From assembly GCA_045863395.1 (NCBI GenBank), contig BTVJ01000054.1:1-50106 (forward strand): DNA of 50,106 nucleotides. The letters are read 5' to 3'. This document shows, in pieces, positions 14,400-43,995 of this stretch. Made by a program: the position numbers and the translations under genes. Every line of letters begins with the position of its first letter. The first letter of the stretch is position 1. This stretch comes from Myxococcales bacterium. Its GTDB lineage: Bacteria; Myxococcota_A; UBA9042; JABWCM01; BTVJ01. A model generated the notes under the pieces. The model was not told the origin of the DNA and did not search any database. It saw only the letters and a program-made list of their open reading frames with translations.

Positions 14400-17300
14400 A
14401 TGACAGCACCTTACCGATGGCTGCTCGCGGCGTGGGTCGCGGCACCCCTGGCCTTTGCTGCCTGCGATGACGCGCCGCCCCCGCCCACCTTCGATCCTTC
14501 AGACGCCAAGACCAGCTTCGAGGGCGACCCCAAGTCGGTGCTCAAGCTGTACGTGGCCAAGTCTACTCCAGCCGCCGACGGCGACGGGCGCATCGACATG
14601 GGCGACAACGAGTCGCTCAAGGTGGTGGTCAACGTCGAGTCCAACGACAAGAACCTGAACCTCAACGACTTCGGGGTCGTGTGGTGCGATCAGTACAGCG
14701 TGCCCGACGGCGAGGCCATCCAGCGGCTGTGCCCCGATCTGTGCGGCATGAAGGGCGTCGGAGGGGACGGCGCGCGGACGGCCGAGCTGTACTTGCCGCC
14801 GGGCGCCCTCTCGACCCTTGGAAAAGAGAAGCTGGAGCACCGGGTCCTCGCGCGCCTCTACGCATCCGACGAGCTCGCCAACCCCGACGTGTGCAAAACT
14901 GCGCCGCTCCTCGAGGACAGCGTGGTCATCACGCTCCGGACGGTCATCAAAGGCCCGGCGGTCACGGTGATGCCGGCGCCCGCCGACACCAAGTGCTACA
15001 CGACCTCGGACCGCCTGAAGGTGCGCATCGAGCCGCTGAAGGCCTACCCCAAGGCGACCTATGAGATCACCTGGTACAAGTCGATCCCGTTCGATTCGGA
15101 CCAGGTCAGCCGGCGCGACCTGGTGCAGGCGGGGCCCCTGTGGGTGTGCGAGGGGACCGAGGAGGTGCTCGACAGCCCGTGCCTGCTGCCCCCGTCCTCG
15201 ACGAAGAAGGGTGACACCTTCTACGTGACGGCGCGCCTCGTCTCGGACGGCTCGGGGAACGCCTTCAGCGGGGCGGAGACCCAGGACCCGCCGGCGATCC
15301 AGGTGTGCGACTCGTACCCGTCGTGCTCCGCCCCAAAGGTGTCGAACGATCCCGTCGGGGTCAGCGGTGCGGTCCGCTGCCTCATGGAGACCTGCACCGA
15401 CGCGGACAGCGACCCGGTCCTCGCCGACCTGGTGATCACGAACCTGTCGCTCGAGACCGGCGCCGCCCGGGAGCTGAAGGGCGTCGGGCCCTTCAACCTC
15501 GGCGCCTTCGGCAGCGCCGCCGTAGACGTGTCGTACAAGCTGACCGACGATCCGGGCTTCGTGCGCAAGGGCGACAAGGTGCGCTGCGACGTGTTCCCCT
15601 ATGGGCCCGACCAGGCGGCGTGGGCAAAGGACACGACGTACCCCTACGGCGACGGGAAGAAGAAGTCCTCCGACACGACGGTCGTGCTCAACACGCCGCC
15701 GGAGGTGACCGGGGTGAAGGTCGTGCCGCTCGACGCCTCCTACACCATCAACACCTCGTACCTCTGCGAGCTCGACACGTGGGACGACAAGGACGGCGCC
15801 GCGGACCTGTCGAACCTGCGCTTCACGTACACCTGGCACAACGGCTCCCTGGACTACGCCCTCATGCCGAAGACGCCCAACGTGGCCATCGGCACCCCGG
15901 GGCTGGTGGAGGCCAAGAAGTTCACCCCCGCGAAGGACGCGCCCGGGTCCATCGGCGCGGGTCAGGTCCTGTGCTGCAAGATCACCGTCACCGACACGGG
16001 CAACCTGGGGGCCCCGGTCGGGGACAGCACCTCGATGCTCAGCCCCAAGGAGGCCTGCATCAAGCTGACCAACGGGGCGCCAGAGATGGTGTTCCAGCCC
16101 GGTCAGAACAAGATTGCCCAGGTCATCGCCTCGTCCGTCCAGGGCAGCGCTGCCGAGCCCTACCCGCAGTGCCTCGACGTGTCCGACCTGGCGAAGACGC
16201 CCACGGGCTCCTTCCTCAGCGCACAGTCCTTGGTCTGCGACACCAAGGGGACGGGCAAGGACCCGGACGGCGACGCGGTGTTCATGCACTATCGGTGGTT
16301 CACCTGCGGGCAGGGCGAGGCGCAGCAGGAGCTGCTGTCGAAGGTGGACGATCCGCGGGCCCTCGCCAACTCGTTGTCCAAGGAGTCGACGGTGTGCTGT
16401 GGGGTCTCCGCGTGCGACGGCCAGGGCGCGTGCAGCCCCGAGATCAAGAGCGCGCCGGTGTTCATCCAGAACACACCCCCCAAGGTGGGCACCCCGACCG
16501 TGGTGGTCGGCGGCCTCAAGCCTACGGGCGACAAGCTCGGCACCTTCTTGTGTGACGTGGAGCTGCTGGACTGCGACGGCGACGACGTGGCGGGCAAGTC
16601 GGAGGTGCTGTGGAGCACCGCCGACGGGACGCCGCCCGCCTGGCCTGCGACTCTGATGACCAGCCTGGACAAGGTGAGCGGCCTCGGCTGCTCGGAGGGG
16701 CTCCGCTGCCGGGTCACCGCCAAGGACGGGAGCATCACCGCCGAGCAGGCCAAGGTCACCGCCTGGTCCCAGCCCCTCCAGCTCAAGAACGACCCGCCGA
16801 AGGTGGGGGCGGTCAGCATCTCGGGTGGCGTGAAGCCCACGGTGGCGTCGACGCTGACGTGCTCCTTCAGCGGTCTGGTGGACCCCAACGGCGACGATCC
16901 CGCGAGCGTGTCGGTGCGGTGGCTGGCGAACGGGGCGCTGCTGACCGAGACGTCCGCGGCAGGCACCGGCGGGAAGGCCGAGCTGAGCCTCGGGTCCTGC
17001 CAGAAGGCGCTCTACGCCGTGAAGAAGGGCGACGTGATGACCTGCGAGGTGCGCGCCTGCGACGGCTGTGGCGCGTGCAGCGACTACGTCGCGTCCAACA
17101 CCCCGCCGAGCGCCTCCACCGTCACGCTGCAGGACAGCCCGACGGTCGTCAGCGGCGCCGGCCTGGTCACGCTGACGCCGGAGGTCGGTGGCAAGGGGGA
17201 CACCTTCATGTGCGCCATCGACCTCGGCAAGCTCCAGGACTGCGATGGCGGCGAGCCCGAGTCCTTCGAGTACGTTTTCCGGTTGGTAGGACAGGGCGGG

Positions 17301-20300: not shown

Positions 20301-22895
20301 AAGGTGGCCGGCTGTCAGTACGCGGCGAACACCGCCTCGTGCAGCGACAGCAACGTCTGCACCACCGGCGACAAGTGCTCCAACAAGGTCTGCGCGGGCT
20401 CCCTCGTCGACTGCGATGACGGCAACGTGTGCACCACGGACTGGTGCGACGGGGTGGACGGGTGCCAGCACGCCAACAACGCGGCGCCCTGCAATGACGG
20501 CAACGCCTGCACCACGGGGGACAAGTGCAGCGGCGGCACCTGTGGTGGCACGACGACCCTGGTCTGCAACGACGACAACCCGTGCACTGACGACTCGTGC
20601 AAGCCGGGGTCCGGGTGCAGCTTCGTGCCCAACGCCAAGGCCTGCGAGGACGGCAACGCCTGCACGACCGGGGACGTGTGCGTCCAGGGCGCCTGCGCCA
20701 GCGGGACGACGCTGGACTGCAACGCGAGCAATACGAACCCGTGCACATTCGCCCAGTGCAGCCCCGCCGTAGGCTGCCTGGCGGCCGCGCCCGTGGCCAA
20801 CGGCAAGCCCTGCGACGACAAGACCAAGTGCACGAGCTCCGATGCCTGCCAGGCGGGGGTCTGCAAGGGCGCGACGGTCGACTGCAATGACGGCAACCCC
20901 TGTACGGACGACTCGTGCGACGCGGTCCTCGGGTGCCTGTACCAGCCCAACGCGGCGCCCTGCGACGACGGCAACACCTGCACGGTCGGCGACTACTGCT
21001 CGGGTGGCGGCTGCTTCTCGGGCGCGGCGAAGGTGTGCAACGACAACAACGTGTGCACCAATGACTCCTGCAATCCGGTGACGGGGTGCGTGCACTCCAA
21101 CAACACCGTGCCCTGCGACGACGGCAACGCGTGCACGCCGACATCCACCTGCGGAGCGGGCTCCTGCGTGGGCTCCGGGCAGGTGGACTGCACCGACGGC
21201 AACCCGTGCACAGGTGACCAGTGTGATCCCGGGGTGGGCTGCTTCTACATCAACCTGGCGATCCCCTGCACCGACGGCAGCGCCTGCACCAAGGACGACC
21301 AGTGCGTCGACGGGGCCTGCAAGGGCATCAACCCCGTCGTGTGCAACGACGACAACGTGTGCACGGACGACTCGTGCAACCCCCAGACCGGATGCGTCTA
21401 CACGGCCAACGCGGCGAGCTGCAACGACGGCAACGCCTGCACCAACAACGACAAGTGCGCCAACAAGGCTTGCGGCGGGACCACCATAAGCTGCAACGAC
21501 AACAACGCCTGCACCGTGGACTCCTGCGACACGGCGACCGGCTGCAAACACACGCCACAGTCCGGTACGCCCTGCAACGACAACAATAGCTGCACGACGG
21601 TTGACACCTGCAGCAACGGCGTGTGCGTGGGCAGCGTGCCCCCCAACTGCGACGACGGGAACGCCTGCACCAACGACTCCTGCGACGGCGGCGCCGGCTG
21701 CGTCCACGTCAACAACGCCAGCGCCTGCGAGGACGGGAGCCTGTGCACGACCGGGGACTTCTGCCTCGACGGCATCTGCAAGTCGGGCTCCGTGGTCCAG
21801 TGCGCCGATGACGGCAACGCGTGTACCGCCGAGCTCTGCAAGCCGGAGGCCGGGTGCGGCTATGTGCCCCTCACGGGCAACCCCTGCAACGACGGGAACC
21901 CCTGCACCCAGGGCGAGAGCTGCTCCAACGGCGTGTGCGGCGGTGGCTCGGCGACCACCTGCCCCAGCGACGGGAACCCATGCACCATCGAGTCGTGCGA
22001 CCCGGTCACCGGCTGCAAGTCCACGAACGCCACCAACGGCACCCCGTGCGCCGACTCCAACCTGTGCACGCTGAACGACTCGTGCCAGAACGGGGTCTGC
22101 ATCAGCGGCCCGACCAAGCCCGCGTGCTGCAACCCGCAGGACTTCGGGCCCTACCCGTCCACGTGCGGCCAGGCGTTCGAGGGCGAGCTCTCGTCCGGCA
22201 ACGCCTACCCGAGCTACAACGCGACCTGCCCGGATCTATGGGGAGGCAACGACTACGAGCTGTGCCTGCCGACCTTGGCGCCCTCCACGGCGGAGCTGTG
22301 CGTGGACTTCCCGACCGCCACGGGGGCTGCCATGCTGCTCTACGACGGTGCCGAGACGCCCGCGGTGGAGTCGTGCCAGCTCGCGGTCGCCGATGGGACG
22401 TGCACCACGGTGCCCTCGACCAACCCGGGCCACGTGGTGGTGCTCGACAGCAAGTCCGCTGGTCCCCAGCAGGTGCGCTACCACGTGCGTTGCCCCGTGG
22501 GGGCCGCCTGCACCCCGGGGACGACCTTCACCTGCAACAACGCGTGGATGTGCCAGTCCACCTTCTGGACCAACAGCGTCGGGTCCCAGGCAAGCGACTA
22601 TGGCCCGAGCTGTGCGTCGGCGGCCCCGGGGCCCGAGCGCATGTTCAAGTTCACGCCGGCGACCACGGCGGTCCACACGGTATGGGCCTCGCCCAAGTCC
22701 CCTGACCTCAAGATCTACATCGCGCCGTCCAACGGCGGGTCCTGCAACCCCACCGACTGCACCACCTTTGGCGTGAGCCCGCGCCACTTCAGCGCCCAGG
22801 CCGGTCAGGAGGTCTGCATCTGGGTGGAGCTGCCCGCCACCGGCACACCCGCAACGGTGAACCTGAGCGTGAGCTGCTACGGCGCTCTTCCCTGA
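14400..22895 (+). CDS. Giant Cys-rich surface lipoprotein / putative adhesin (2831 aa): ~10-11 Ig-like repeats, LamG-like domain, CDDGNPCT repeat array, C-terminal beta domains
   Basis: GGAG RBS, ATG 14400, lipobox PLAFAA-C. Repeated N(T/S)PP.V...L.C...D.DGD...W...KKGD..C units. LamG-like TLELW..WTHIALSWD..GYIDELRV at ~18440-19050. Cys repeats at ~19465-22130. Confidence 0.9.
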   Translation: MTAPYRWLLAAWVAAPLAFAACDDAPPPPTFDPSDAKTSFEGDPKSVLKLYVAKSTPAADGDGRIDMGDNESLKVVVNVESNDKNLNLNDFGVVWCDQYSVPDGEAIQRLCPDLCGMKGVGGDGARTAELYLPPGALSTLGKEKLEHRVLARLYASDELANPDVCKTAPLLEDSVVITLRTVIKGPAVTVMPAPADTKCYTTSDRLKVRIEPLKAYPKATYEITWYKSIPFDSDQVSRRDLVQAGPLWVCEGTEEVLDSPCLLPPSSTKKGDTFYVTARLVSDGSGNAFSGAETQDPPAIQVCDSYPSCSAPKVSNDPVGVSGAVRCLMETCTDADSDPVLADLVITNLSLETGAARELKGVGPFNLGAFGSAAVDVSYKLTDDPGFVRKGDKVRCDVFPYGPDQAAWAKDTTYPYGDGKKKSSDTTVVLNTPPEVTGVKVVPLDASYTINTSYLCELDTWDDKDGAADLSNLRFTYTWHNGSLDYALMPKTPNVAIGTPGLVEAKKFTPAKDAPGSIGAGQVLCCKITVTDTGNLGAPVGDSTSMLSPKEACIKLTNGAPEMVFQPGQNKIAQVIASSVQGSAAEPYPQCLDVSDLAKTPTGSFLSAQSLVCDTKGTGKDPDGDAVFMHYRWFTCGQGEAQQELLSKVDDPRALANSLSKESTVCCGVSACDGQGACSPEIKSAPVFIQNTPPKVGTPTVVVGGLKPTGDKLGTFLCDVELLDCDGDDVAGKSEVLWSTADGTPPAWPATLMTSLDKVSGLGCSEGLRCRVTAKDGSITAEQAKVTAWSQPLQLKNDPPKVGAVSISGGVKPTVASTLTCSFSGLVDPNGDDPASVSVRWLANGALLTETSAAGTGGKAELSLGSCQKALYAVKKGDVMTCEVRACDGCGACSDYVASNTPPSASTVTLQDSPTVVSGAGLVTLTPEVGGKGDTFMCAIDLGKLQDCDGGEPESFEYVFRLVGQGGVVIANEQGVKSKVTQAPFKFDQCPAIDVFWCEVDVRDKADASVLSPAPTSGTVHLDESPPVVAVLLEPAGPKVGDQVTCTTTALTDADPEDVPKLKPTWKWLVNGASRDDLEGLQKITLTEGTFKKNDKVACTATVSDGCFPAVTSGLSAVTIANSPPTLSGATLGPAAPKMTSTLTCTAGTYADKDGDPEWAVVFEWQTNTTGKLDDWKAVPIACQKDVPAERKSLFDLDQCLQMVPAKGHQIRCLARAVDGPLAPPSQSPAATSIAVTIADSPPMLLDVSLAPYGSSLPSAPSLDPGQNVLRCAADANDPDGDAFSVSRMWMIYGSDGAQKGAFAGGEDLDLGTAGVSSCDSVVCEVTLKNAQGLKVTSEVRSADIRGGGSLYFGGVPNAWVDLKPGTVSGVTSTGTLELWYWAEVLPAVGTVRNTLLERVDASVAKQWELAIQPGGSVALRSGSANFFTPSGAGVGTAQLQAGVWTHIALSWDAVSATLWVGGVAVGTWSTALPFDLGATRLGASGGRAPGGYIDELRVRSAKATPQPNQPYLQKTADTLALYHLDPAEGDVVADVTGNGFHGAFGSSPAARRVHAQLDACGLVACGAGTDSCLLPPTSVSLEYAGTTFSGGVLEYVARCKASGGVDLSGGTVTDYKFMWYDQTTGQNIGEAKIGKGEATQKVAVGSGCRYVTCTAAPLPLGGGAEGPSASSAPAKALCVLNGTAVVDFGCDDGNKCTADVADPVTGCAHDVDDGATCSTQCAQLQTSACVGGQCLCLSQCSNPEDDPCIQAVSVAPDGTCIYGPKQNGTPCVPLSACVSGEGQCQSGVCVNAPQLSCDDGNPCTDDWCDEAAGCKHANNAKECSDGSACTVGDVCLNGSCKSGGLLDCNDGNTCTSDACNPGAATPAVACTYVPLTGPTCSDGNACTKNDACSAGSCKGTADNCNDGNPCTNDACDPAKGCVYTFNTSACDDLDACTKSDQCVSGTCQGIAASCNDGNPCTDDSCDKVAGCQYAANTASCSDSNVCTTGDKCSNKVCAGSLVDCDDGNVCTTDWCDGVDGCQHANNAAPCNDGNACTTGDKCSGGTCGGTTTLVCNDDNPCTDDSCKPGSGCSFVPNAKACEDGNACTTGDVCVQGACASGTTLDCNASNTNPCTFAQCSPAVGCLAAAPVANGKPCDDKTKCTSSDACQAGVCKGATVDCNDGNPCTDDSCDAVLGCLYQPNAAPCDDGNTCTVGDYCSGGGCFSGAAKVCNDNNVCTNDSCNPVTGCVHSNNTVPCDDGNACTPTSTCGAGSCVGSGQVDCTDGNPCTGDQCDPGVGCFYINLAIPCTDGSACTKDDQCVDGACKGINPVVCNDDNVCTDDSCNPQTGCVYTANAASCNDGNACTNNDKCANKACGGTTISCNDNNACTVDSCDTATGCKHTPQSGTPCNDNNSCTTVDTCSNGVCVGSVPPNCDDGNACTNDSCDGGAGCVHVNNASACEDGSLCTTGDFCLDGICKSGSVVQCADDGNACTAELCKPEAGCGYVPLTGNPCNDGNPCTQGESCSNGVCGGGSATTCPSDGNPCTIESCDPVTGCKSTNATNGTPCADSNLCTLNDSCQNGVCISGPTKPACCNPQDFGPYPSTCGQAFEGELSSGNAYPSYNATCPDLWGGNDYELCLPTLAPSTAELCVDFPTATGAAMLLYDGAETPAVESCQLAVADGTCTTVPSTNPGHVVVLDSKSAGPQQVRYHVRCPVGAACTPGTTFTCNNAWMCQSTFWTNSVGSQASDYGPSCASAAPGPERMFKFTPATTAVHTVWASPKSPDLKIYIAPSNGGSCNPTDCTTFGVSPRHFSAQAGQEVCIWVELPATGTPATVNLSVSCYGALP

Positions 22896-27305: not shown

Positions 27306-28004
27306 TCAACGTCGCCTGGGGAGGGGAGCGTCGCCCTCCGCCGGCCGGCTGCGCGGCGCCAGCAGGGCGGAGATCCTCCCGACACCTGCGGCGAGCGTGG
27401 TCTCTGGGCCATAGGGCGCAAAGGGAACTGCCGCCACCTCGCCCTCCGCGGTCAACAACGGGGTCCCGTCAGGGGACACAACGTTGGTCACCCAGGTGGG
27501 GCCCAGCACCGGGTCGTCGAGCAGCTCGACGAGGGCGCCGCGCGTCAGGACCTCGTGGCCGAAGCTCCACACGTTGGACAGAATCACCAGGTCCCCCCGC
27601 GCTCGCTCGTCCTCGGGCGCGGCGAGGGGGACGGGGGCCAGCTCCGGCGGCCAGGGGTCGAGGGCGAGCAGGGCCATCACCCCGTCGGTGCGAACCGCCC
27701 GCGCGCCAATCTGCCGCTCCTCGGACAGGACGACCTTGGGGCGCGCGCCACCGACGAGCAGCCGCGTCGCGGTCAGGAGCCGCGGGCCGTCCGGTGTGCG
27801 CAGCGCGACGGCGGTCCCCTGGTGCCCCGGGAGCAGCAGGGGCCCCGCGTCGGCCGGTACCAGGAGCAGCGGCACCACGGAGGCCCGCAGGCGCACGCGC
27901 AGCGCTTCGGCGGCGTCCCAGTCGACCAGCGCGTCGGCGGCCTGCTGCGCGGCGCCCGGACGAGGGGCGAGCATCAGGCATGCGACGAGGGCGGCGCGCA
28001 ACAT
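27306..28004 (-). CDS. Secreted trypsin-like (HtrA-type) fold protein, apparently lacking the catalytic triad (232 aa)
   Basis: Signal peptide. [14 protein letters not shown] (cf. LTAxHVV), DGVMALLAL (cf. DLALL), [17 protein letters not shown] (cf. GNSGGPLxNxxGEVxGV). Confidence 0.65.
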
Positions 28005-28062
28005 GGGCGGAGACGGTAGCACGCCTCGGCCCGGACCGCCTACGCCGGCGCGCCAACAAGTG

Positions 28063-28092
28063 TTGCCGGGGAGGATCGTCGGCACGTATACT
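28063..28092 (+). promoter_or_regulatory. Putative sigma70 promoter for the TSP3 lipoprotein gene
   Basis: TTGCCG-18 nt-TATACT upstream of the GGAGGA RBS. Confidence 0.45.
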
Positions 28093-28140
28093 TCGGCGCA
28101 TTCGTGCCCACGTGCCGATCCGCAACCGGAGGACCCCACC

Positions 28141-31100
28141 GTGAAGCGATTCCGACCCCACTTGGCGCTCCTGAGCGCCTTCGCAGCGGCTGCCGCGTGC
28201 ACCGACGCCGGCATCACCCAGGGAACGGGTGCCGGGTCCGACGCGGATGCCTCGCAGGCCAGCGACGTCTCGGGTACGGGCGACGCCGGGCCCATCTGGG
28301 GGACGGACACCTCAGGCTCCGACACCACCTGGGGCGGTGGTGACGACGCGACGGACGCTGGCGAGCCCGAGGACGTGCCCGCGGCGCCGGACGGCGCGCC
28401 CGGCGTCGGGGAGTTCGGCTACGAGTGCAAGAGCAACGCGGACTGCCTGAGTGGTTACTGCGTGGAGGGGGTCAGCTCGACGGTGTGCACCAAGGGGTGC
28501 GTCGAGGACTGCCCGCAGGGGTGGGGCTGCAAGTCCGTCCAGAACACGGGCGGCGACGTGACGTTCATCTGCCTCTACAACTTCGTGAACCTGTGCCGTC
28601 CATGCGCCTCCAACGCCGACTGCGCGGCGGCGGGTGGCCTGGCCGTGGGCACCGCCGACCTGTGCCTCGACTACAGCGCCGAGGGCCGCTTCTGTGGCGC
28701 CGACTGCTCGGAGAACGCCTGCCCGCCCGGTTTCACGTGCTCGGACGTGGAGATGCAGCCCGGCAAGGTCCAGAAGCAGTGCGTCCCGGACTCGGGCATG
28801 TGTGAGTGCGAGCCCAAGTACGATGGCCACGCGACCACGTGCTTCGTGCAGAACGGCTTCGGCAAGTGCTCGGGCACGCGCTCCTGCAGCGGTGGCGCGC
28901 TCACCGAGTGCAATGCACCCATCCCGGCGACGGAGACGTGCGACGGCAAGGACAACGACTGCGATGGCCTGACGGACGAGGACGTCCCGACCCAGACGTG
29001 TGAGAAGACCAACGAGTTCGGGACGTGCGGTGGCAACGCCACCTGCAAGGCCGGCGAGATGGTCTGCAACGCGAAGGACGCCCAGATCGAGATCTGTGAC
29101 AGCGTGGACAACGACTGCGACGGCAAGGTGGACGAGGACTTCCCGGACACGGACGGTGACGGCAAGTCGGACTGCCTCGACTCCGACGACGACGGCGACG
29201 GCGTCAACGACCTGCAGGACAACTGCCCGCTGGTGCCCAACCCCGGTCAGGAGGACTACGACCTGGACGGCAAGGGAGACGCCTGCGATCCCGACGACGA
29301 CAACGACCTGGTCAAGGACGAGGACGACTGCGAGCCCTACAATCCGCTGGCCTACCCTGGAGCCCTGGAGCTGTGCGACGGCATCGACAACAACTGCAAC
29401 GGGCAGGTGGATGAGGGCTTCCAGGACCTGGACGGTGACGGCAAGAAGGACTGCGTGGACCCGGACGACGACAACGACGGCGTCCCGGATGGCCTCGACA
29501 ACTGCCCGACCATCGTCAACCCCGACCAGATCGACACGGACCTGGACGGCAAGGGCGACGAGTGCGACCCCGACGACGACAACGACACGATCCCCGACGA
29601 GCAGGACAACTGCCCGAAGACCCCAAACCTGGACCAGAAGGACAGCAATGGTGACGGGGTCGGTGATGCGTGCGCCGAGGACGCCGATGGCGACGGGGTC
29701 AAGAACATCAACGACAACTGCCCACTGGTCTGGAACCCGGACCAGTCCGACCTCGACAGCGACGGCCTGGGAGACGCCTGCGACGACGACGACGACGGCG
29801 ACGGCGTCCCCGACGCCATCGACAACTGCAAGCTGGTCAAGAACCCGGCGCAGCTCGACTTCGACAAGGACGGCCTCGGTGACGACTGCGACCCGGACGA
29901 CGACAACGATGGGGTCCCGGACGACGTCGACAACTGCAAGCTGGTCCCCAACCCGGACCAGGTGGACACCGACGGCGATGGGCAGGGCAACGCGTGTGAC
30001 CTGGACGACGACGGCGATGGGTCGCCCGACACCGTCGACTGCATGCCGCTGGACCCGAGCATCCACCCGAACGCCCCGGAGATCTGCAACGAGGTGGACG
30101 ACAACTGCAACGGCAAGATCGACGAGGAGGGGTCGGAGGCGTGCAGCAAGTACTACTTCGATGGTGACGGCGACGGCTGGGGGACCGCTGAGAACAAGTG
30201 CCTCTGCAACGGCTCGGGCAAGTTCACGGCGCTGAACACCGGCGACTGCAACGACACGGACACGGGGGTCAACCCGGGCCAGCCGGAGATCTGCGGGGAT
30301 GGCAAGGACCAGAACTGCAACGGCACGGAGAACGACGACAACGCGGTCGGCTGCACGCCGTACTACTTCGACGGCGACGGTGACGGCTTCGGCACGAGCG
30401 ACACCATCTGCCTCTGCACGGCGTCCGGCAAGCACACGGCCACGAAGACCGGCGACTGCAACGACGGGGACGCTGGCATCAACCCTGGCATCGTCGAAGT
30501 GTGCTTCAACGGCAAGGACGACAACTGCAACGGCGACCAGAACGACCTGAACGCAGTCGGCTGCACGCCCTACTACCAGGACGCGGACAAGGACGGCTTC
30601 GGGACCGGGACGGCCCAGTGCTTCTGCGAGCCCAAGGGCAACTTCACCGCGACCGTGGCCGGCGACTGCGTGGACGGTGACCCTGCCGTAAAGCCGACGG
30701 CCAAGGAGGTCTGCGGCAGCGGCAAGGACGACAACTGCAACGGAACGCAGAATGAAGAAGGCGCCCTCGGCTGCACCACGTATTACTACGACGGCGACAA
30801 GGACGGCTATGGCACGGCGCTCTCCAAGTGCCTCTGCGGACCCGTCGACCCGTACCTCGCGACCCAGTCGGGCGACTGCCTCGACTCCAACGGCGCGATC
30901 AACCCCGGCGCCAAGGAGGCCTGCAACAGCGTGGACGACGACTGCAGCGGCGCGCCGGACGACGCGCCCATCGCGACCCTCTGCGGGGCCCCCGCCAACG
31001 CCACCGTTGCCTGCGCCGGGTCGTGCTCCATCACGAGCTGCAAGGCGCCCTATGCCAACATGAACGGGCAGTACAACGATGGCTGCGAGTGCGCGTCGGA

Positions 31101-31566
31101 CGGCAACGACCAGGCTGGGGCCGGCAACGCCTGCGCCGCGGCCATCCACCTCGGGACCTTCGCCGACAACGGGTCGCTGAAGGTAGCCGGTGGCAACATC
31201 GTGCCGGCGGGCGACAGTGACTGGTATTCGATGCTCACGCAGGACTCGGCGGACTCGACCTGTGACAAGTTCAAGGTCCGCGCGCGGTTCACGTACAACC
31301 CGGGCAACCAGTTCGCCTTCGACGTGTACCGGGGTGGCTGCGCCGGCGGCAACGCCATCTGCGCGGCCAGCACCGACTTCGACTGGTACACGAACTTCTC
31401 CGCGGGCGGGAAGGGCGAGTGCCCCTGTGCGCCGGATCCCGGCACAACCAACACCAACGTCTGCACCGACAACAGCGCCTGGTTCTACATCCGCGTGTTC
31501 CGCAAGGACAACGCGCCCTTGTCCTGCGACAACTACGAGATCGAGGTCACCAACGCGGTCTACTGA
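28141..31566 (+). CDS. Cys-rich lipoprotein with thrombospondin type-3 Ca-binding repeats and MopE-like putative metal-binding repeats (1141 aa)
   Basis: GGAGGA RBS, GTG 28141, lipobox FAAAAA-C. DxDGDGxxDxxDNCPxxxNPxQxD repeats at ~29140-30030. ExCDGxDNDCDG motifs. Four ~70-aa YYxDGDxDGxGT repeats (210-bp period) at ~30150-30960. Confidence 0.9.
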
Positions 31567-36290: not shown

Positions 36291-37763
36291 CTATCTGATA
36301 TGGGAGGGATCGGGGGGCGACGGATCGGTCCAGTCCCCCACGGAGCGCAGCCACGGTCCATCCCGATCCATGCGCTCATACCGCTTCCAGGTGCGCAGGC
36401 CGGCCTCCCGGTTGCCCAAGGCGATCTGGCAGTAGCCGAGCAGGTAGGTGACGTCGGCGATGTTCGGGTGGCGCCTCTGGGTCGAGACGAAGCGCTTCAG
36501 CTCCGGCAGGACCTGCCCGCACTGTCCATCGCGGGCTGCCTTTGCCATGCGGGTGACCTCGGCGCGGGGCACCCGGGGGGACGGCGAGCCGTCGGCAGGG
36601 CTCATCTCCACGCGGGTGTCGCCGACTCCCGTGACGATGGCCACCTCGGGAGCGGGGGCCGCGATTCCCTGCTCGGGAGGGGGGGGCGCTCCCGAGAGAG
36701 GGTCCGTCGCATGTGAGCGCTGGGCGACCGCCGGCCTCGAGCGCCCCTTGTCGGTGCCACCCTTGCGTGCAGCCACGCCCGACGGTGGAGTGTCCTCGTC
36801 CTCCCGGTCCGCGTGGTGCTCGGCGTCGGGTCGCTGCGCCGCGGTCCCCGCCAGCCCGGTCGCTGGTCCCACGCCCGGGTCACCCGCCCCCGTGGGGAGG
36901 GCGCCAGTTGGGCCGTCGGCGACCGCCTCTGGGGCGGTGGTGTCGACACCATCGCGCGGTGGGCCCGCGGGCGTCGCCTCAGGCTCCGCGGCGGCCACCC
37001 TCTGGGCACCTGTCGGGGCGGCGCCAGCCGCGCTCCCCTGTGCCGTCTCGGGCGGCGTCGCCTGCGCGCGGGTCGCGACCATCTGCTGCGCGCCGGCACG
37101 GAGCACGGCGACCACCCCGGCGGCGTCCGTGACCTGGATCACCCCTCGGCTCACGGACACCAGGGCCCCCTCTGCGGCGACTCGCACCGAGAACCGGGTG
37201 CCGAGGACGCGGATCTCGGCGTCGCCCACTTGCACCACGAAGGCCCTCCGCTCTGCTCGCTTCGACACATCCGCCGTCAGCTCCCCTTCGATGAGCCTGA
37301 CCACCACCGCGTCGCGGGCATTGGCGACCACCTGCATCCGGGCTGTCGATGGGGCGGTCAGCGTGCTGCCATCCGCCAGGACCTCGTGGGTGGGCGCCCC
37401 CTCGGCGCTGACCGCCGCCCCCGCGGGCGAGTCGGCATTGGGGCTGCCCACTTGATGCACCGCCCGCGGCCAGAGGATCATGGCCAGAATTGCGGCCAGC
37501 GCCCCAGCAGGGACGAGCCACCACAAGGGGCTGGTGGCGGGCCTGGTCGTCGCCGCCCGAAGGCCCGCATCGACACGGCGCCAGTCGACGGCGGGGACGT
37601 CCGAACGCGCGGCCGCTGCCAGAGATCGAACCGCGCGTGCATGGCCTGCGTGCGCCTGGCAGGACGGGCAGGCGTCCAGGTGTCGCTCCCATCGCGCCCT
37701 CTCCTGAGGGTCCAGCTCGTCGCGCGCGTCGCGGAAAGCCAGGTCGAGGCCAAGCTCACACAT
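36291..37763 (-). CDS. Transmembrane anti-sigma factor: zf-HC2 finger, TM, FecR-like domain, low-complexity linker, C-terminal TPR-like domain (490 aa)
   Basis: HLDACPSC. TM LWWLVPAGALAAILAMILWP. FecR LADGS...L.EG...IRVLGTRFSV...VSVSRGVIQV. Overlaps the sigma gene stop. Confidence 0.87.
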   Translation of the reverse strand: MCELGLDLAFRDARDELDPQERARWERHLDACPSCQAHAGHARAVRSLAAAARSDVPAVDWRRVDAGLRAATTRPATSPLWWLVPAGALAAILAMILWPRAVHQVGSPNADSPAGAAVSAEGAPTHEVLADGSTLTAPSTARMQVVANARDAVVVRLIEGELTADVSKRAERRAFVVQVGDAEIRVLGTRFSVRVAAEGALVSVSRGVIQVTDAAGVVAVLRAGAQQMVATRAQATPPETAQGSAAGAAPTGAQRVAAAEPEATPAGPPRDGVDTTAPEAVADGPTGALPTGAGDPGVGPATGLAGTAAQRPDAEHHADREDEDTPPSGVAARKGGTDKGRSRPAVAQRSHATDPLSGAPPPPEQGIAAPAPEVAIVTGVGDTRVEMSPADGSPSPRVPRAEVTRMAKAARDGQCGQVLPELKRFVSTQRRHPNIADVTYLLGYCQIALGNREAGLRTWKRYERMDRDGPWLRSVGDWTDPSPPDPSHIR

Positions 37764-38436
37764 CGAGCACTCCCTCCTTCGCGAGCCGCTGCGTCACCTC
37801 CGCGCGCGCGGCGATCAGCCGCGACCGGATGGTGTTGTGCGGCACGCCGAGGACGTCCGCTGCCTCTTGGGGGCTCAGCCCCTCGACCTCGACCAGGACG
37901 AACACCGCCCGCTTCTTGGGTGAGACCTTCTCCAGCGCCCGACCGAGCCGCCGCAGGGAGCTCCGGCTCTCGATCTGGTGGCGGAGGTCCTCCGGTGCGG
38001 CCACGTCCGCGTTCTCGTCCGCGGAGAAGAGCCGCAGCCACCGCTTGCGCGACCGCCTGCGGACCTCCTGAAGTGCCACGTTGACCGTGATGCGGTAGAG
38101 CCACGTCGAGATCGCCGATTCGCCTCGAAACCGATCCAGCGAGCGGAAGACCTCGATGAAGACGTTCTGAACGACGTCCTCGACCTCGCCTTGGGCTCCC
38201 AGGATGTGCCAGGCCACGCCGGCGACCATCTCTCTGTACCTCGCATAGATCTGCTCGAAGCTCACGGCTTCCCGCGCAGCGGAACCCGTCAGTCGCTCGC
38301 TCGCCGCCTCTCTCGGGCCAGGCGAGTGCGCCTGAGCGCTCTCGCCGCCCGCGGTCGACTCGCAGGGAGTGAGCTTCCCGGCGGCTACGGCCTGCAACGC
38401 GTGGTCCTCCGGTCGCTTCGACCCGTCGTCAGCCAT
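37756..38436 (-). CDS. ECF RNA polymerase sigma factor (226 aa)
   Basis: Region 2 EDVVQNVFIEVFRSLDRFRGESAISTWLYRITVN. Region 4 RAVFVLVEVEGLSPQEAADVLGVPHNTIRSRL. Confidence 0.93.
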   Translation of the reverse strand: MADDGSKRPEDHALQAVAAGKLTPCESTAGGESAQAHSPGPREAASERLTGSAAREAVSFEQIYARYREMVAGVAWHILGAQGEVEDVVQNVFIEVFRSLDRFRGESAISTWLYRITVNVALQEVRRRSRKRWLRLFSADENADVAAPEDLRHQIESRSSLRRLGRALEKVSPKKRAVFVLVEVEGLSPQEAADVLGVPHNTIRSRLIAARAEVTQRLAKEGVLDV

Positions 38437-38495: not shown

Positions 38496-38963
38496 CTACT
38501 CGGGGCGGGGGATGGCGCCGGGCGTGCGCTGCGGCCCTCCCTCGTCCAGCTCGATCTCCAGGGTGTAGACGGAGCCGCCCGTGTCGGACTCGATCTCCAG
38601 AAAATAGCTCCCCTCACGCACCCGGATGTTGCCCCAGCTCTCCTTCCGCTGCCCGATCTGGTGCTTGAGCTTGTACATCTGCCCGCCGAACTGGTCGCGG
38701 ACCGTGATTGTGGCGACGATGTCCGGGTTGTCCCACCAGGCGTTGAGGGTCATGATGGTCTCGTAGACCGGGACCGTGAAGACCTTCCAGTCGGTGGTAT
38801 CGCCCCCCGCGCGGTCGAGGCGGTCATGCACGGGGACGCCGAGCGGCATCTTCTTGGCGCTGCCGCGCTTCTCGTCGCCGCCCGAGTTGTCGTTCGGCCC
38901 GATGCCGCAGCCGGCCGAGAGGGCGATGATTCCTGCGAGGAGCGTCACGCGTGCCGGGGCCAT
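38496..38963 (-). CDS. Lipoprotein with PPC-like beta-sandwich (155 aa)
   Basis: GGAGG RBS. Lipobox IIALSAG-C. GDTTDWKVF...GSYFLEI...YTLEI pattern. Confidence 0.75.
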   Translation of the reverse strand: MAPARVTLLAGIIALSAGCGIGPNDNSGGDEKRGSAKKMPLGVPVHDRLDRAGGDTTDWKVFTVPVYETIMTLNAWWDNPDIVATITVRDQFGGQMYKLKHQIGQRKESWGNIRVREGSYFLEIESDTGGSVYTLEIELDEGGPQRTPGAIPRPE

Positions 38964-39140: not shown

Positions 39141-40289
39141 ATGCACACGACGAGAGGGCGATGGGTGGCGGGGGTGCTGGCGGCCGTGCTGCCGCTCTGG
39201 GCTTGCGATGGTGGTGGCGAAGAGCAGGGATCGGGCGGTGAGGGCCCGGGGGTCTCGCTGGACGTGGTGCAGGGGGGCTCGGACGTGATGGCGGGGTCCG
39301 ACGCGGCCGGAGGCGACCCCGACGTGACCGAGCCCGACGACGCGGCCGCGGAGCAGGACCTCGGCACCGCCACCCCGGACGTGGCTGCGGGGGACGCCGG
39401 GGGCGCCCCCGACACGAGCACCGTCGACCCCAAGGCCCTGCTCGTCTACGAGCCCACGGCCGCCGAGCTTGCCGCCTACCCCCAGTGCACCCTCGAGAAG
39501 ATGACCCTGACCGTGCACGGCAACAAGGTCGCGACCCTTGCGCTCGGAAACGGCGGCCACGATGGCCACGGGCTCGACGTGGATGGCGATCCGGCCACCT
39601 GTGCGCCCGTCGACGACTGCGACAGCGGCATCGACAACCAGCTCGGCGCCCTCGGCGCCATCGTCAACGGGAGCCTCGTGGAGTCGCTGGACGCGGGGGT
39701 GATCATGCTGGTCCTCGAGTACGAGGGCTACGCCGCGGCTGGTCCTGGCAACCCGTTCAACCTCAAGATGTACACGGCGCGCATCGACCCGGACGACGAG
39801 GACTGCGACTGGCAGACCGAGGAGTGCATCTACAACATCCGCGCCGACTCCTATGACGAGAACTGCAACCCGCTCATGACCTTCGACAATGCCGTGATCG
39901 CCTCTGACGGGGCGTTCACTGCCGGCGGACCAGACGGCAAGTTCATCCTGTCCGTGCCGCTCTTCGGGCTCACCGTGCAGGTGCCCGTGTACAAGGCCCG
40001 CATCATCGGGCAGGCCGACGTGAAGAGCGGCGTCGTCCTCGGCATGGAGGGGCTCATCGCGGGGGCGGTTCCCAAGTCCGAGCTCCTGGGCGCCGTCGAG
40101 GTGATCCCCGACGAGGAGTTCACCGCCACCGGCTTCAGCAAGGACTTCATCGTCAGCGCCATCGACAGCATCGTCGCCGACGACATCGACACCGACGGCG
40201 ACGGAGTGGGGGACGGCGCCAGCGTCGGCATCCGCTTCGGCGCCATCCCGGGAAAGCTCGCCGGCTTCGAGATCCCCGCGAAACCGTGA
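39141..40289 (+). CDS. Acidic hypothetical lipoprotein (382 aa)
   Basis: GAGGA RBS. Lipobox VLPLWA-C. D/G linker, GLDVDGD..C..GIDNQLG motif, C-terminal DIDTDGDG Ca-binding-like loop. Confidence 0.8.
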   Translation: MHTTRGRWVAGVLAAVLPLWACDGGGEEQGSGGEGPGVSLDVVQGGSDVMAGSDAAGGDPDVTEPDDAAAEQDLGTATPDVAAGDAGGAPDTSTVDPKALLVYEPTAAELAAYPQCTLEKMTLTVHGNKVATLALGNGGHDGHGLDVDGDPATCAPVDDCDSGIDNQLGALGAIVNGSLVESLDAGVIMLVLEYEGYAAAGPGNPFNLKMYTARIDPDDEDCDWQTEECIYNIRADSYDENCNPLMTFDNAVIASDGAFTAGGPDGKFILSVPLFGLTVQVPVYKARIIGQADVKSGVVLGMEGLIAGAVPKSELLGAVEVIPDEEFTATGFSKDFIVSAIDSIVADDIDTDGDGVGDGASVGIRFGAIPGKLAGFEIPAKP

Positions 40290-40367
40290 GGGTCTTCGCG
40301 GGCGGGCGGGAGCGCGGGGCTCCTCGTGCACGCCATTTGCCGGCGTCCGTGATATAGTCCCGCAGCG

Positions 40368-41027
40368 ATGGCCGTGCACGAAGACGAGCAGATCCTGATT
40401 GACCGCTGCCTGGGGGGTGACCAGAGGGCGTGGTCAGAGTTCGTCGAGCGGTACACCGACCTCGTCTACTCGTCGATCCACCACTCGCTGCGGGCGCGCG
40501 GCGCCCGAATGGGCTCCGACGAGGTCGAGGACCTGCACAACGGTATCTTCCTCGCCTTCATCGAGCGCGACGGCCGCAAGCTCCGCCAGTTCGACGGGCG
40601 CTGCCGGCTGACGAGCTGGATCAAGGTCGTCAGCGTCAACTACACCATCGATCGCCTCCGGCGGCGTCGCCGCGTGGTGTCGCTCGACGACTCGAGCGGG
40701 GACGGGCCCGGGCTCATCGCGCTCCTCGAGTCCGACGATCGGGTGGCCTCCGAGTCCTTGGAGACGCGCCAGGACCTGAAGCTCGTCGCGGTGGTCGTGG
40801 CGAAGCTGTCCAAGTCGGAGCGGGAGCTGGTGGACCTGCTGTTCGTCCAGGAGCGCCCCTTTCCCGAGATTGCGGAGAGGCTCGGAACCTCCCTTGGCGC
40901 CGTCTACACCCGAAAGAACCGCCTGATCGCCAAGATCAAGGACCGCTTCGACAGAGAGCTGAAGAAGGTCCGCGCGAACGCTGGTGAGAAAAGCCATGGC
41001 CGCGCGTCAGGGGACGGCAAGGCGTAG
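40368..41027 (+). CDS. ECF RNA polymerase sigma factor (219 aa)
   Basis: LIDRCLGGDQRAWSEFVERY, EVEDL..IFL, FDGRCRLTSWI...NYTIDRLRR, and region 4 EIAERLGTSLGAVYTRKNR. Extended -10 TGaTATAGT at 40350-40358. Confidence 0.9.
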   Translation: MAVHEDEQILIDRCLGGDQRAWSEFVERYTDLVYSSIHHSLRARGARMGSDEVEDLHNGIFLAFIERDGRKLRQFDGRCRLTSWIKVVSVNYTIDRLRRRRRVVSLDDSSGDGPGLIALLESDDRVASESLETRQDLKLVAVVVAKLSKSERELVDLLFVQERPFPEIAERLGTSLGAVYTRKNRLIAKIKDRFDRELKKVRANAGEKSHGRASGDGKA

Positions 41028-41082
41028 GGGGAGCGCGGGGACGACGCCCGCGTTGCTTCGACCACGCCAACGAGGTGAAGAC

Positions 41083-41721
41083 ATGACGGACCCCTACAGC
41101 CATATGGATGACCTGCTCCGAGCCGCGCTCTCCACCACCTGCTCGCTGGACGACCGTGAGCTCGCCGCCATGGAGGCCGACGGGCGCCTCGCCGAGCACT
41201 CGGCTCGCTGCGCGCCGTGCGCGGAGAGGGCAGCGGTGCTGGCTCGCATCGACGCAGAACCCGTCCGGGCGGCTCCCGCCGCGCGGGCAGCCATGGTGGC
41301 GCGCGCGCAGGCGCTCATGACCCAGCGGGAAGATCTTCTGACCGTGATCGTTCGCTGGATGAAGGGCGCGTTCGACGTGCTCACCGGCGGAGAGGCGCTG
41401 ATCCCCGCCGCCGCAGTGAGCCTTCGGTCCCTCGCAGAGGACGTCGTGCACGAGCCCGTGTCGTTCCGCAAGCGCCTGGGCGGCCTAGACTTGATTGTGC
41501 ACCTGGCGCCGCGCTCCGACGAGCGCTTCGACATCCTGTTGGATCCGCCGGGTGGCCCGTCGCATCGCTACGCGCTGCTGCGGGGTGGAAAGGAGCTGTT
41601 CTCGGAGGTCTCGCGCGGGGCGCGGGTCCGGTTCCCGGAGGTGGCTCCGGGCAGCTACGCCATCGCCGTGCACACCGGCGCGGACCTGGTCGGGCGGATC
41701 GTGGTGACTGTCCACCACTGA
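41083..41721 (+). CDS. Soluble putative anti-sigma factor: HxxxCxxC zinc finger plus C-terminal Ig-like beta domain (212 aa)
   Basis: GAGGTG RBS. C...EHSARCAPC (ZAS/zf-HC2). No TM stretch. C-terminus VRFPEVAPGSYAIAV. Confidence 0.75.
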   Translation: MTDPYSHMDDLLRAALSTTCSLDDRELAAMEADGRLAEHSARCAPCAERAAVLARIDAEPVRAAPAARAAMVARAQALMTQREDLLTVIVRWMKGAFDVLTGGEALIPAAAVSLRSLAEDVVHEPVSFRKRLGGLDLIVHLAPRSDERFDILLDPPGGPSHRYALLRGGKELFSEVSRGARVRFPEVAPGSYAIAVHTGADLVGRIVVTVHH

Positions 41722-41737
41722 GGCTTGCGGAGGCTCA

Positions 41738-43789
41738 TTGGCGAGGAGAGCGCCAGTACTGGTCCTCGATGTCGCGACGAACGGTGACGGGCTACGGGTC
41801 TCCCTTCTGGAGAAGACCCCGGGCACGTGGCGCACGGTCGTACCGCTATATTTGCACCACGTCGACCTGGACCGCGTCCGCACCATCAATCGGGATATCT
41901 ACGCCATCCTGAACCGGGCCAACCGGCGCGGCGACATCGACCGCGGGAGCAGCGACATGCTGCGCCGGGCGGGGCAGCGCCTCTTCGACGAGCTCTTGCC
42001 GGGGCCCGTCAAGGAGCGGCTGCGGACTGCCGCTGTCGCTGGCATCGATGAGCTCGTGCTGTGCCTGGACGAGCCGGTGGTGTACCTGCCATGGGAGCTC
42101 CTGCATACCGGGCACGGGTTCCTGGGGCTCGACTTCGTCATGGGGCGCATCGTGCGGTCGGAGCGGGGCCCACTGGGGCCGCCGCGCGTGCTCGACACCG
42201 AGCGGCCGAGCGAGATGCTGATCGTCTGTGACCCCCGTGACGACCTGATGGCCAGCTACTACGAGGGTGTCAGCATCCGCGACGACATGGACCTGCACCG
42301 TGATCGGGTCGAGGTCGCCCTCAAGTCGAGCGAGGTGGACGTCCCCTGGCTCCAGGAGGCCATCCGGGACTACGACATCGTCCACTACGCGGGGCACGCC
42401 GACTACGTCGCGCGGGCGCCCAACGACAGCGGGTGGAAGCTCGCGGGGGGGAAGCTGACGGCCCGGGAGATCCTTCGGGTCGCCGGTGGAGCCCCGTTCC
42501 CGCTGCTCGTCTTCGCGAACGCCTGCCGGTCCGGGACCATGTCGCCAGCGCTCCTGACCGAGCGGCACGGCGAGGGGGTCTTCGGGCTCGCCAACGCGTT
42601 CCTCATCGCGGGGGTGCAGCACTTCATCGGTGCGCTGTGGGACATCCCCGACGAGAGCGCCTGTCACTTCGCGCTGGCCTTCTACCGCTCGCTGATGAGC
42701 GGGGTGACCGTCGGTGCGGCGGTGCGCGCCGCCCGCCGGGCGCTGGTCAAGCGATACGGCGCCGACAGCGTGCTCTGGGGTAGCTACGTGTACTACGGCG
42801 ACCCCACCTACGCGATCTTCGCGCGGATCCCCCTCGATGCGCCGGCCGTTCCTCGCCTGCCCACCCCGCTGCCTCGGGCCGGAGCCGAGGTCGTGGCGCT
42901 CCCGCGCGCTGCCCAGCGACCGGCCGACGAGGTGCCCATGAGGCGCGTGGCGAGGCTCCGCGGGGCGCTGGCGCTCCCCGACCTGGAGCTGCCTCGCGCG
43001 CGCCTGCCCCGCGCTGCGCTCCCTGCGCTGGCCGCTGCGGCCGTGCTGGCGATCTTGGCGGCCGTGGCGCTGCTGCTCCTCGCGCCGCTGGAGGAGGAGC
43101 CGGCCCAGTACACCTATGAGTCGGTTCCCCCCACGCGGCTGGCGCAGCGGGATGTGGCGCCGCTCCGGCCCACCATGGCGGTGGCAAGCGCGGGCCAAGG
43201 CCTCGCCGAGCCTCTGCGGGCGGAGGCCCGGGTGTTCGTCCAGACCGTGGACGCCGCGGGCGGCGTGGAGGTCGTCGAAGTCCCGGCCGGGGCGGAGCTG
43301 ATGGGCGACGACGGGTTCCAGGTGCAGCTCCGCGTCAACCGGCCGGCCTACACCTATGTCTTCCTCGTGGGGACGCGGGGGGACGTGGCGCAGCTCCTGC
43401 CGAGCCCCGGTGCCGCCGTGCCGTACTACCGGGACTCGGACGCGTGGGTGCGGCTCCCGAGCAGCGAGAGCTGGTATCGGGCCAGCGAGCGGCGGGGGCT
43501 CTACGCGGTGGTCCTCGCGGGCTCGGTGCGTCCCGTGGAGGACCTGAGGTCCGTTCTGAGCGACGTGCAGTCCATCCGGGACAAGGTGGTCCGCGAGTCT
43601 CCGCTCGTCCACGTGCTGGTGCACCGGGTGCCGCTCGGGCCGCCAAGCCGTGGCACGTGGCGCCCGACCACCGAGGACGAGGCGGTGTCCGTCACGCAGG
43701 TGGACGTGCGGCGCTTCGAGCGGGAGCTGGCGGTCCGGCTGCGGCAGTCCTTCGATGCGGTGGAGCTGCGGATCCTGCGGGTGCGGTAG
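41738..43789 (+). CDS. CHAT-domain (caspase-like, clan CD) protease with TM helix and C-terminal DUF4384-like domain (683 aa)
   Basis: GGAGG RBS, TTG start. G..LFDELLP, LPWELLH, IVHYAGHA (His220), LVFANACRSG (Cys263), GLANAFL.AG...IGALW.I.D, FY..L..G, W.SYVYYGDP. TM at ~43015-43087. GDDGFQVQLRVNRPAYTYVF..G.V.QLLP DUF4384 pattern. Confidence 0.9.
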   Translation: MARRAPVLVLDVATNGDGLRVSLLEKTPGTWRTVVPLYLHHVDLDRVRTINRDIYAILNRANRRGDIDRGSSDMLRRAGQRLFDELLPGPVKERLRTAAVAGIDELVLCLDEPVVYLPWELLHTGHGFLGLDFVMGRIVRSERGPLGPPRVLDTERPSEMLIVCDPRDDLMASYYEGVSIRDDMDLHRDRVEVALKSSEVDVPWLQEAIRDYDIVHYAGHADYVARAPNDSGWKLAGGKLTAREILRVAGGAPFPLLVFANACRSGTMSPALLTERHGEGVFGLANAFLIAGVQHFIGALWDIPDESACHFALAFYRSLMSGVTVGAAVRAARRALVKRYGADSVLWGSYVYYGDPTYAIFARIPLDAPAVPRLPTPLPRAGAEVVALPRAAQRPADEVPMRRVARLRGALALPDLELPRARLPRAALPALAAAAVLAILAAVALLLLAPLEEEPAQYTYESVPPTRLAQRDVAPLRPTMAVASAGQGLAEPLRAEARVFVQTVDAAGGVEVVEVPAGAELMGDDGFQVQLRVNRPAYTYVFLVGTRGDVAQLLPSPGAAVPYYRDSDAWVRLPSSESWYRASERRGLYAVVLAGSVRPVEDLRSVLSDVQSIRDKVVRESPLVHVLVHRVPLGPPSRGTWRPTTEDEAVSVTQVDVRRFERELAVRLRQSFDAVELRILRVR

Positions 43790-43809: not shown

Positions 43810-43847
43810 AAAAAAAAACTGGCCGCGAGCCGAAGCCCGCGGCCAGT
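43810..43847 (-). terminator. Rho-independent terminator on the minus strand
   Basis: ACUGGCCGCGGGC-UUCG-GCUCGCGGCCAGU 13-bp stem (one G.U pair, cUUCGg loop) followed by 8 further U. Confidence 0.9.
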
Positions 43848-43995
43848 CCCAACCGAACCTCCTCAGAACGAGGGCGCGGGGTCCCTGCTCCCCGCCTCCC
43901 TCCAACCTCCCAGAGGCAGGTCGCTCAGGCGGGCGCCCCTGCAAAACGCCCGGCCTTGGCTGCCTCTGTTGCGCCGTTCCTCACGACGTCTCGGG
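43810..43995 (-). ncRNA. Candidate sigma54-dependent small RNA (~185 nt, three stem-loops)
   Basis: Lies between a consensus sigma54 promoter and an intrinsic terminator on the same strand, with no SD-led ORF contained inside. Stems at 43911-43968, 43870-43902 and 43818-43847. The 5' end is inferred from promoter spacing. Confidence 0.72.

Follow-up and report, generated by a model that had tools for sequence, protein, structure and literature searches.

The 50,106-nucleotide stretch of DNA examined here (the window; forward strand of contig BTVJ01000054.1, from a Myxococcales bacterium) is the entire contig C54 of an 8.8-Mb genome (G000). It contains three co-oriented open reading frames (ORFs) on the + strand, separated by gaps of 55 and 16 bp, which encode a sigma factor of the extracytoplasmic function (ECF) type, a soluble anti-sigma candidate (here called the middle protein) and a CHAT protein with one transmembrane (TM) helix (Table 1). 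A preliminary description, made from the letters of the DNA alone, had drawn attention to this close-set trio and had read it as a stand-alone receptor-protease pathway that frees a sigma factor; the arrangement of the genes is borne out, and the reading itself is weighed below. The locus DNA is contained in sequencing runs of metagenomes from sludge, wastewater, bioreactors and aquatic sources, and the named homologues nearest to the trio carry the label Myxococcales. Comparison with contigs from four other runs found no indel within any of the three genes. Contigs from RNA libraries also span the locus, which cannot show transcription.

Table 1. Features of the trio locus, its neighbours and the fourth genes of related loci
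Feature	Position	Strand	Basis
Extended -10-like element, TG-n-TATAGT	40350..40358	+	seen in the sequence, 9 bp before the sigma ATG
ECF sigma factor, 219 aa	40368..41027	+	TIGR02937, Pfam r4, weak r2, 24-member alignment
Soluble anti-sigma candidate (middle protein), 212 aa	41083..41721	+	zinc-type N-domain, linker, Ig-like domain (sequence and model)
Arg115 codon, predicted P1 (L-R/S)	41425..41427	+	invariance and analogy to PatU3 R117/S118
CHAT protease (activity predicted), 683 aa	41738..43789	+	pseudo-protease and CHAT, Pro/Arg-rich linker, TM, outer DUF4384-like domain
Transmembrane helix, residues 431-449	43028..43084	+	hydropathy 2.93
DUF4384 match, residues 525-594	43310..43519	+	Pfam 28 bits, cut-off 27; Atlas features agree
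Small exported protein, divergent neighbour of the sigma gene	38496..38963	-	signal-like N-terminus ending in Cys19
Acidic exported protein, encoded between small gene and sigma gene	39141..40289	+	no Pfam match
Fourth-gene TPR-CHAT of related loci	L016:2680-6348, L017:10019-12934, L021:10606-13476, L022:10150-13311

The three proteins of the locus

The product of the first gene fits its earlier assignment as an ECF sigma factor; it matches TIGR02937 (sigma70-ECF) with 73.5 bits against a cut-off of 42.9 and Pfam Sigma70_r4_2 above its cut-off, and its match to Sigma70_r2 is weak (E 0.008). The extended -10-like element in front of it is a possible housekeeping promoter, which would give a very short leader; a consensus scan found no full -35/-10 promoter before the sigma gene.

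The best start of the middle gene is the ATG at 41083, which lies behind GAGGTG and is shared by four of four close homologues, and not the GTG at 40984. Its product carries the zinc motif C20 plus H39xxxC43xxC46 and no TM helix (best 19-residue hydropathy 1.33), just as the finger protein without membrane segment had been described. The zf-HC2 scan that had been suggested gave a divided answer, in that the window's middle protein has no Pfam or NCBIfam match, whereas 12 of 36 family members match zf-HC2; RsrA is matched by the N-domain of 11 of the 36. The family N-terminus also shows weak matches to the anti-sigma domains of DdvA and ChrR (E 0.005-0.14; 0.005 for DdvA). The protein thus has the marks of a zinc-binding anti-sigma (ZAS) factor, namely HxxxCxxC in a helical N-terminal domain and a gene at position +1 of an ECF gene, and by family likeness this domain would be the one that holds the ECF sigma. 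In the structural model (predicted local distance difference test, pLDDT, 85) the helical N-domain (about residues 1-82) is followed by a beta-hairpin, a linker and an Ig-like beta-sandwich (about 124-212), and linker residues 110-116 are the sole stretch with a pLDDT below 50. Fold searches with the middle protein returned generic Ig folds only (best Z 7.5), and CarboxypepD_reg is weakly matched by 6 of 36 middle proteins.

The CHAT gene starts with TTG behind GGAGG. Residues 77-355 of its product match the Pfam CHAT domain with 110 bits (E 1.9e-31), and the putative catalytic dyad comprises His220 in HYAGHA (codon 42395) and Cys263 in NACRS (codon 42524); both of these residues and Asp305 are invariant in 24 of 24 same-clade CHAT proteins. 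The CHAT domain with its His220/Cys263 dyad, the single TM helix and the DUF4384-like domain of the preliminary description are all present, the last with a score just above the cut-off; DUF4384 is elsewhere also fused to kinases and other proteases. A model of the CHAT protein (pLDDT 91.6, predicted TM-score 0.92) shows an alpha/beta pseudo-protease plus the CHAT domain in residues 1-356. Foldseek finds separase and Csx29 as its best matches (E about 1e-13, TM-scores 0.55-0.64), followed by DdvA and SAVED-CHAT; a PDB sequence search was uninformative. The dyad together with a pseudo-protease and active-domain fold is the hallmark of CHAT and separase-type clan CD proteases, and by these features the protein would be such a protease, its activity being predicted. 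Asp302 and Asp305 align with the separase stretch LWDVTD, which we take to be part of the separase Arg pocket.

The CHAT protein lacks a hydrophobic stretch at its N-terminus, and its TM helix has the more positive flank towards CHAT (Arg-rich, net +2, compared with an acidic far side of net -4), so that the CHAT domain most likely lies in the cytoplasm, as the preliminary description had assumed. The same charge bias towards CHAT is seen in 13 of 15 TM-type proteins, that of the window among them.

The trio shows no link to cas genes at its locus, although not every ORF of the window was scanned for cas families, and all three cas1 genes of the genome sit on contigs other than C54. No array-like repeats were found in the window, where the close direct repeats detected are codon-periodic coding repeats or two-copy pairs, and PADLOC returned weak matches only. 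A Pfam scan found no TPR in the window's CHAT protein. The claim of a trio free of cas genes, arrays and TPR is thus upheld within the ORFs scanned, and the feature that defines Craspase, a TPR-CHAT linked to Cas7-11 within a CRISPR locus, was not found here.

A predicted cut site and a modelled docking surface

Arg115 is the only invariant column of the middle protein, with Arg in 36 of 36, 30 of 30 and 24 of 24 rows of three alignments that overlap (the first two hold 62 distinct sequences, and relatives are not independent). The residue that follows is Gly, Ser or Ala in 27 of 36 and 27 of 30 rows, compared with 28% for other Arg residues, and the one that precedes it is usually aliphatic or Thr. 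Arg115 sits within the disordered linker 110-116. In PatU3, HetF cuts between R117 and S118 (PMC9457339), and separases are described as cutting after Arg (PMC11506125); by analogy, the CHAT protein probably cuts the anti-sigma candidate after Arg115 (between Arg and Ser of L-R-S), which would free the sigma. A record from Leptospira interrogans (L074:2972-5996) has the gene order of the trio, with a sigma gene, a middle gene and an unannotated CHAT ORF; its Cys-free middle protein has M-R-S at the linker position of Arg115, and its similarity to the family is weak (hhalign probability 22%, E 0.001).

In a model of the complex, the Ig-like domain of the middle protein sits on the CHAT domain with a score of 0.73, compared with 0.24 for the best control. 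The mark set for this score was reached by 116 of 157 solved pairs and 2 of 215 mismatched pairs, and is only roughly valid for alignments made for this analysis. The runs have at least 57% of contacts in common and a partner pLDDT of at least 67, and in the confident interface the CHAT edge strand 192-199 pairs with Ig strand 170-176. The model supports docking of the Ig domain on CHAT and so agrees with the binding of protease to anti-sigma that had been proposed.

Conservation, promoters and neighbouring genes

Searched with a profile built on the middle protein, 10 of 107 genomes of the class contained matches; a wider profile matched 280 of 401 genomes of the phylum, mostly through its short zinc-finger part, and that number is not a family count. 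The 20 best-scoring full-length new matches were added (G191, which is partial, G294 and G134 were left out), and the resulting set of related loci comprises 29 loci from 27 genomes. The gene-neighbourhood survey found the expected conservation of the trio: the sigma gene adjoins the middle gene in 28 of the 29 loci, and a same-clade CHAT gene lies within the fetched stretch in 24. For the five loci without a nearby CHAT gene, the genome holds one same-clade CHAT elsewhere per middle gene (three for three in G186), with E values of at most 2e-87, the next best match being at 3e-25. Distance correlations among the three proteins (0.50-0.69) and the CHAT tree reflect shared ancestry and were not used as proof. 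A scan of the genome collection with the single CHAT protein returned one unrelated locus only; look-alike clusters are found mostly in Thermodesulfobacteriota, Spirochaetota and Acidobacteriota.

The portion of the CHAT protein behind the protease domain varies within this family. The CHAT gene directly follows the middle gene in 15 loci, 14 of them with a TM helix and one ending at a contig end, and 4 of these 15 TM-type loci match DUF4384 with E values no higher than 0.001. One locus encodes CHAT-TM-CHASE2-TM, and eight, all of one family and in one starred clade, have a divergent CHAT-AAA_16-TPR (STAND-TPR) gene. Since the tail swaps among TM-DUF4384, CHASE2 and STAND-TPR, these arrangements suggest that it is the input of the switch. 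Beside several pairs of the STAND-type family (L057, L059 and L063) lies a conserved gene for an exported protein of roughly 210 residues, and at L059 an M10-type metallopeptidase gene lies near the pair.

Nine of the 29 loci have a contractile injection operon (Pvc16, sheath, tube) that runs divergently from the trio, an identification that was checked with Pfam in one. The pattern GGAACTTTT-N12-CGTC stands in front of the sigma gene in eight of the nine loci of this clade, and its strict form occurs once per genome in five of five genomes and never in the reversed control; it is an ECF-type promoter, through which the sigma would probably regulate itself. A looser form of the pattern gives five extra sites. 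As a regulon signal in the window's own genome the loose pattern was rejected, since its 12 sites compared with 0-14 at other spacings are not above background. Control of the injection operon by the trio sigma is likewise not supported; because the operon has its own sigma70-type promoter, is present in 79 of 107 class genomes compared with 13 that have a same-clade CHAT, and lies on another contig in the present genome, its adjacency to the trio may be inherited synteny.

Ten regions upstream of Pvc16 (L015-L018, L020-L023, L054; G000 C80:18546-19400) share a sigma70-type promoter, TTGAC-N-TGnTA, and 150-200 bp above it a conserved, operator-like palindromic element of the type CCCCA-NN-TGGGG. 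At four of the nine injection-linked loci a fourth gene behind the trio encodes a TPR-CHAT protein in which the His and Cys are intact and, where the start is clear, the N-terminus is signal-like; G000 has no close copy of it. At C43:10933-15070 of G000 lies another ECF sigma gene, followed, beyond an intervening gene, by one for a lipoprotein-like TPR-CHAT (HYAGHA, AACRS).

On the other side of the trio, the small exported protein encoded divergently from the sigma gene has a tblastn homologue in 10 of the 29 related loci; it has no Pfam match and does not fit the strict lipobox pattern. The acidic exported protein has a homologue by tblastn in one of the 29 only, in a genome of the same order, and is a local addition. 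A second ECF sigma gene, with one for a TM FecR/zf-HC2 anti-sigma, directly adjoins the trio (window 36291-38436, - strand). Behind the CHAT stop codon lies a strong 16-bp hairpin (window 43815-43850) with a T run on the minus strand only. Very large ORFs with Cys- and Asp-rich coding repeats occupy window positions 13833-22895 and 27484-31566 (both + strand) and probably encode surface proteins.

A candidate CRISPR-free sigma switch and its relatives

We judge the chance somewhat better than even that the trio is a CRISPR-free sigma switch thrown by a single, sensor-gated cut. The N-domain of the middle protein would hold the ECF sigma, as its family suggests, and the C-terminal Ig domain would keep the protein on the protease through the modelled contact of strand 170-176 with CHAT 192-199. 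Engagement of the tail domain, which is the outer DUF4384 here and CHASE2 or STAND-TPR in related proteins, would turn on the His220/Cys263 site, and this would cut after Arg115 in the floppy linker. The N-terminal fragment would then be let go and probably degraded, as with Csx30 and PatU3, and the sigma would be freed; the output genes of the sigma can only be inferred. The pathway reading of the preliminary description thus keeps its cytoplasmic CHAT domain, its conserved trio and, in the model, its binding of protease to anti-sigma, but its novelty was overstated (see below).

A number of points weigh against this switch. The residue after the catalytic His is Ala in 15 of 24 rows and Gly in only three, and it is Ala in 36 of 38 close homologues, the window's protein included; in caspases, Gly is usual at this position. 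Three of the 15 TM-type members have fewer than 50 residues after the TM helix, one of them at a contig end. In the gappy linker around Arg115, alignment software can bring separate Arg residues into one column, and the profile that retrieved the genomic set itself contains Arg115. Arg115 is also not among the confidently placed interface residues, and the score of the complex may owe to likeness to the solved Csx29-Csx30 complex. Conservation of the Ig interface exceeds that of the rest of the Ig domain in one alignment (0.55 vs 0.41) but not in the other (0.43 vs 0.42), and on the CHAT side it is 0.49 both within the interface and elsewhere. The motif HxxxCxxC is present in 27 of 36 database homologues but in only 8 of 30 genomic ones, so the zinc ligands, as judged from these alignments, are not essential and have been lost in many members. 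The ECF-type promoter pattern GGAACTTTT-N12-CGTC is absent from the window and from this genome. Finally, the CHAT part of HetF without TM and TPR is reported to cut PatU3 in vitro and to complement a mutant (PMC9457339).

This HetF result favours cleavage without receptor gating, in which CHAT would be on by default, the TM helix and outer domain would place or restrain it, and output would be set by the amount or location of the protease. Of the same tendency are the reports that PatU3 is undetectable in the wild type (PMC9457339) and that HetF without its TM is no longer at the membrane (PMC8406250), as well as the short outer segments mentioned above, one of which was possibly cut by the contig end. 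However, recognised sensors (CHASE2, STAND-TPR) replace the tail in 9 of 24 loci, and Csx29 and SAVED-CHAT are described as being under allosteric gating; we consider ungated cleavage unlikely. A shade less likely still is binding without productive cutting of the anti-sigma, with CHAT as a docking anti-anti-sigma that draws the inhibitor away from the sigma, or with the middle protein acting as an inhibitor in a securin-like way while CHAT cuts itself or other proteins. The complex model supports docking alone, His-Ala stands in place of His-Gly, activation by autopeptidase action has been proposed (Kaur 2021, PMC8195603), and PCi is inhibitor and substrate of PCaspase at once. Yet the dyad and Asp305 are invariant, and the invariant pair of Arg and a small residue in a disordered linker fits a substrate, as in PatU3.

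The CHCC motif of the window's middle protein would also suit an ordinary soluble zinc anti-sigma switch responding to redox state or metal (ECF270- or ECF12-like), with CHAT as a member of the regulon or a neighbour with another substrate. ECF270 is described as having a soluble ZAS in Deltaproteobacteria and no further conserved context (PMC7826278), and 5 of the 29 loci have no CHAT nearby. It is an improbable explanation, the zinc ligands being lost in many members in which Arg115 and the Ig domain are kept; the genomes with split loci hold one same-clade CHAT per middle gene, and the complex model joins CHAT to the middle protein.

The sensor-gated switch has close parallels. HetF-PatU3-HetZ of Anabaena PCC 7120 is CRISPR-free and has an N-terminal cytoplasmic CHAT, one TM helix and an outer domain (PMC9457339, PMC8406250), the topology found in the window's CHAT protein, and its soluble inhibitor, which is cut at Arg-Ser, sequesters a regulator whose gene lies in the same operon, as proposed here for the middle protein (PMC9457339). 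HetF is the sole NCBIfam match of the CHAT family (13 of 24 members), but the window's protein scores 26.2 bits for NF045509 against a cut-off of 1200 and is not an orthologue by this measure. The outer domain is DUF4384 in the trio and TPR in HetF, and on the trio's side the partner is plainly an ECF sigma, accompanied by a ZAS-type anti-sigma. The stand-alone CHAT-TM pathway proposed in the preliminary description was thus already represented by HetF; caspase proteins with TM-CHASE2 or STAND tails beside ECF sigmas were also already known (Kaur 2021, PMC8195603). Those EACC2-caspase systems combine a constant alpha+beta domain and caspase with a tail of TM-CHASE2 or STAND, an ECF sigma and one more gene, as in the trio (Kaur et al. 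2021, PMC8195603), and the present family has the same variable tails and ECF neighbour. The N-domain of the window's CHAT protein is alpha+beta in the model and may correspond to EACC2, for which the published supplement lists no alignment. The third EACC2 gene is a DUF1822 gene, read as encoding a TPR protein, self-cleavage is proposed, and the rows examined are cyanobacterial (PMC8195603); none of the 12 supplement files searched contains DUF4384. DUF1822 was matched by none of 36 middle proteins at E 0.05, which leaves remote homology possible.

In Craspase (Csx29-Csx30-CASP-sigma), Csx29 has the same pseudo-protease plus active CHAT fold as the window's protein (TM-scores 0.63-0.64), and some Csx30 C-domains are DUF4384 (PMC10028731; 10.1101/2022.08.17.504292). 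Csx30 is reported to bind CASP-sigma by its N-domain and Csx29 (CHAT2) by its C-domain (PMC10028731), a division of labour like that proposed here for the middle protein. The trio differs in having no Cas7-11, TPR or CRISPR link and in having a membrane anchor; Csx29 cuts after Met or Leu within the C-domain (PMC10028731; 10.1101/2022.08.17.504292), whereas the cut predicted here is at a linker Arg. DdvS-DdvA of Myxococcus xanthus shares with the trio an ECF sigma, a CHCC zinc anti-sigma domain, a CHAT domain and a membrane crossing, but its layout is inverse, DdvA being a TM anti-sigma with a periplasmic TPR-CHAT that is freed by intramembrane proteolysis (PMC11506125); in the trio CHAT is encoded by a separate gene and is N-terminal to the TM helix. 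ECF54 has a carboxypeptidase-regulatory-like (Ig-like) protein at +1 and CHAT nearby, a context similar to that of the trio; it is described as restricted to Actinobacteria, with a subtilase and TPR-CHAT (PMC7826278), whereas the trio has no TPR in CHAT, Myxococcales-labelled homologues and no subtilase among the eight window genes scanned. ECF270, with its soluble ZAS at +1 in Deltaproteobacteria, fits by description only, and CHAT is not noted in what its account (PMC7826278) gives. As proposed, then, the trio works like HetF-PatU3-HetZ and Csx29-Csx30-CASP-sigma and is a member of neither. No test of the trio family was found in the literature, most subscription papers and bioRxiv supplements having been outside the search. 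This analysis adds an invariant Arg that is predicted to be the point of cleavage, a model in which the Ig domain docks, the observation that zinc dependence has been lost, and the swapping of sensors within one family.

A broader proposal, which we hold to be doubtful, is that these loci represent a widespread receptor-protease class, in which an anti-sigma with a fixed Arg site docks on proteases with interchangeable sensors (DUF4384, CHASE2, NLR-like STAND-TPR). An outside signal would be turned into one cytoplasmic cut without site-1/site-2 intramembrane proteolysis; in one clade the exported TPR-CHAT would act first, in a two-protease cascade spanning the membrane, and the output may include the injection operon. 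The trio bears on whether the logic of Csx29-Csx30 and HetF-PatU3 serves bacterial signalling generally, beyond CRISPR and cyanobacteria. Orphan CHAT proteins that carry TM, CHASE2 or STAND tails, and that have been proposed in print to cleave themselves, gain a candidate substrate in the middle protein, and a modular unit of sensor, protease and sigma would, if true, be a useful engineering part.

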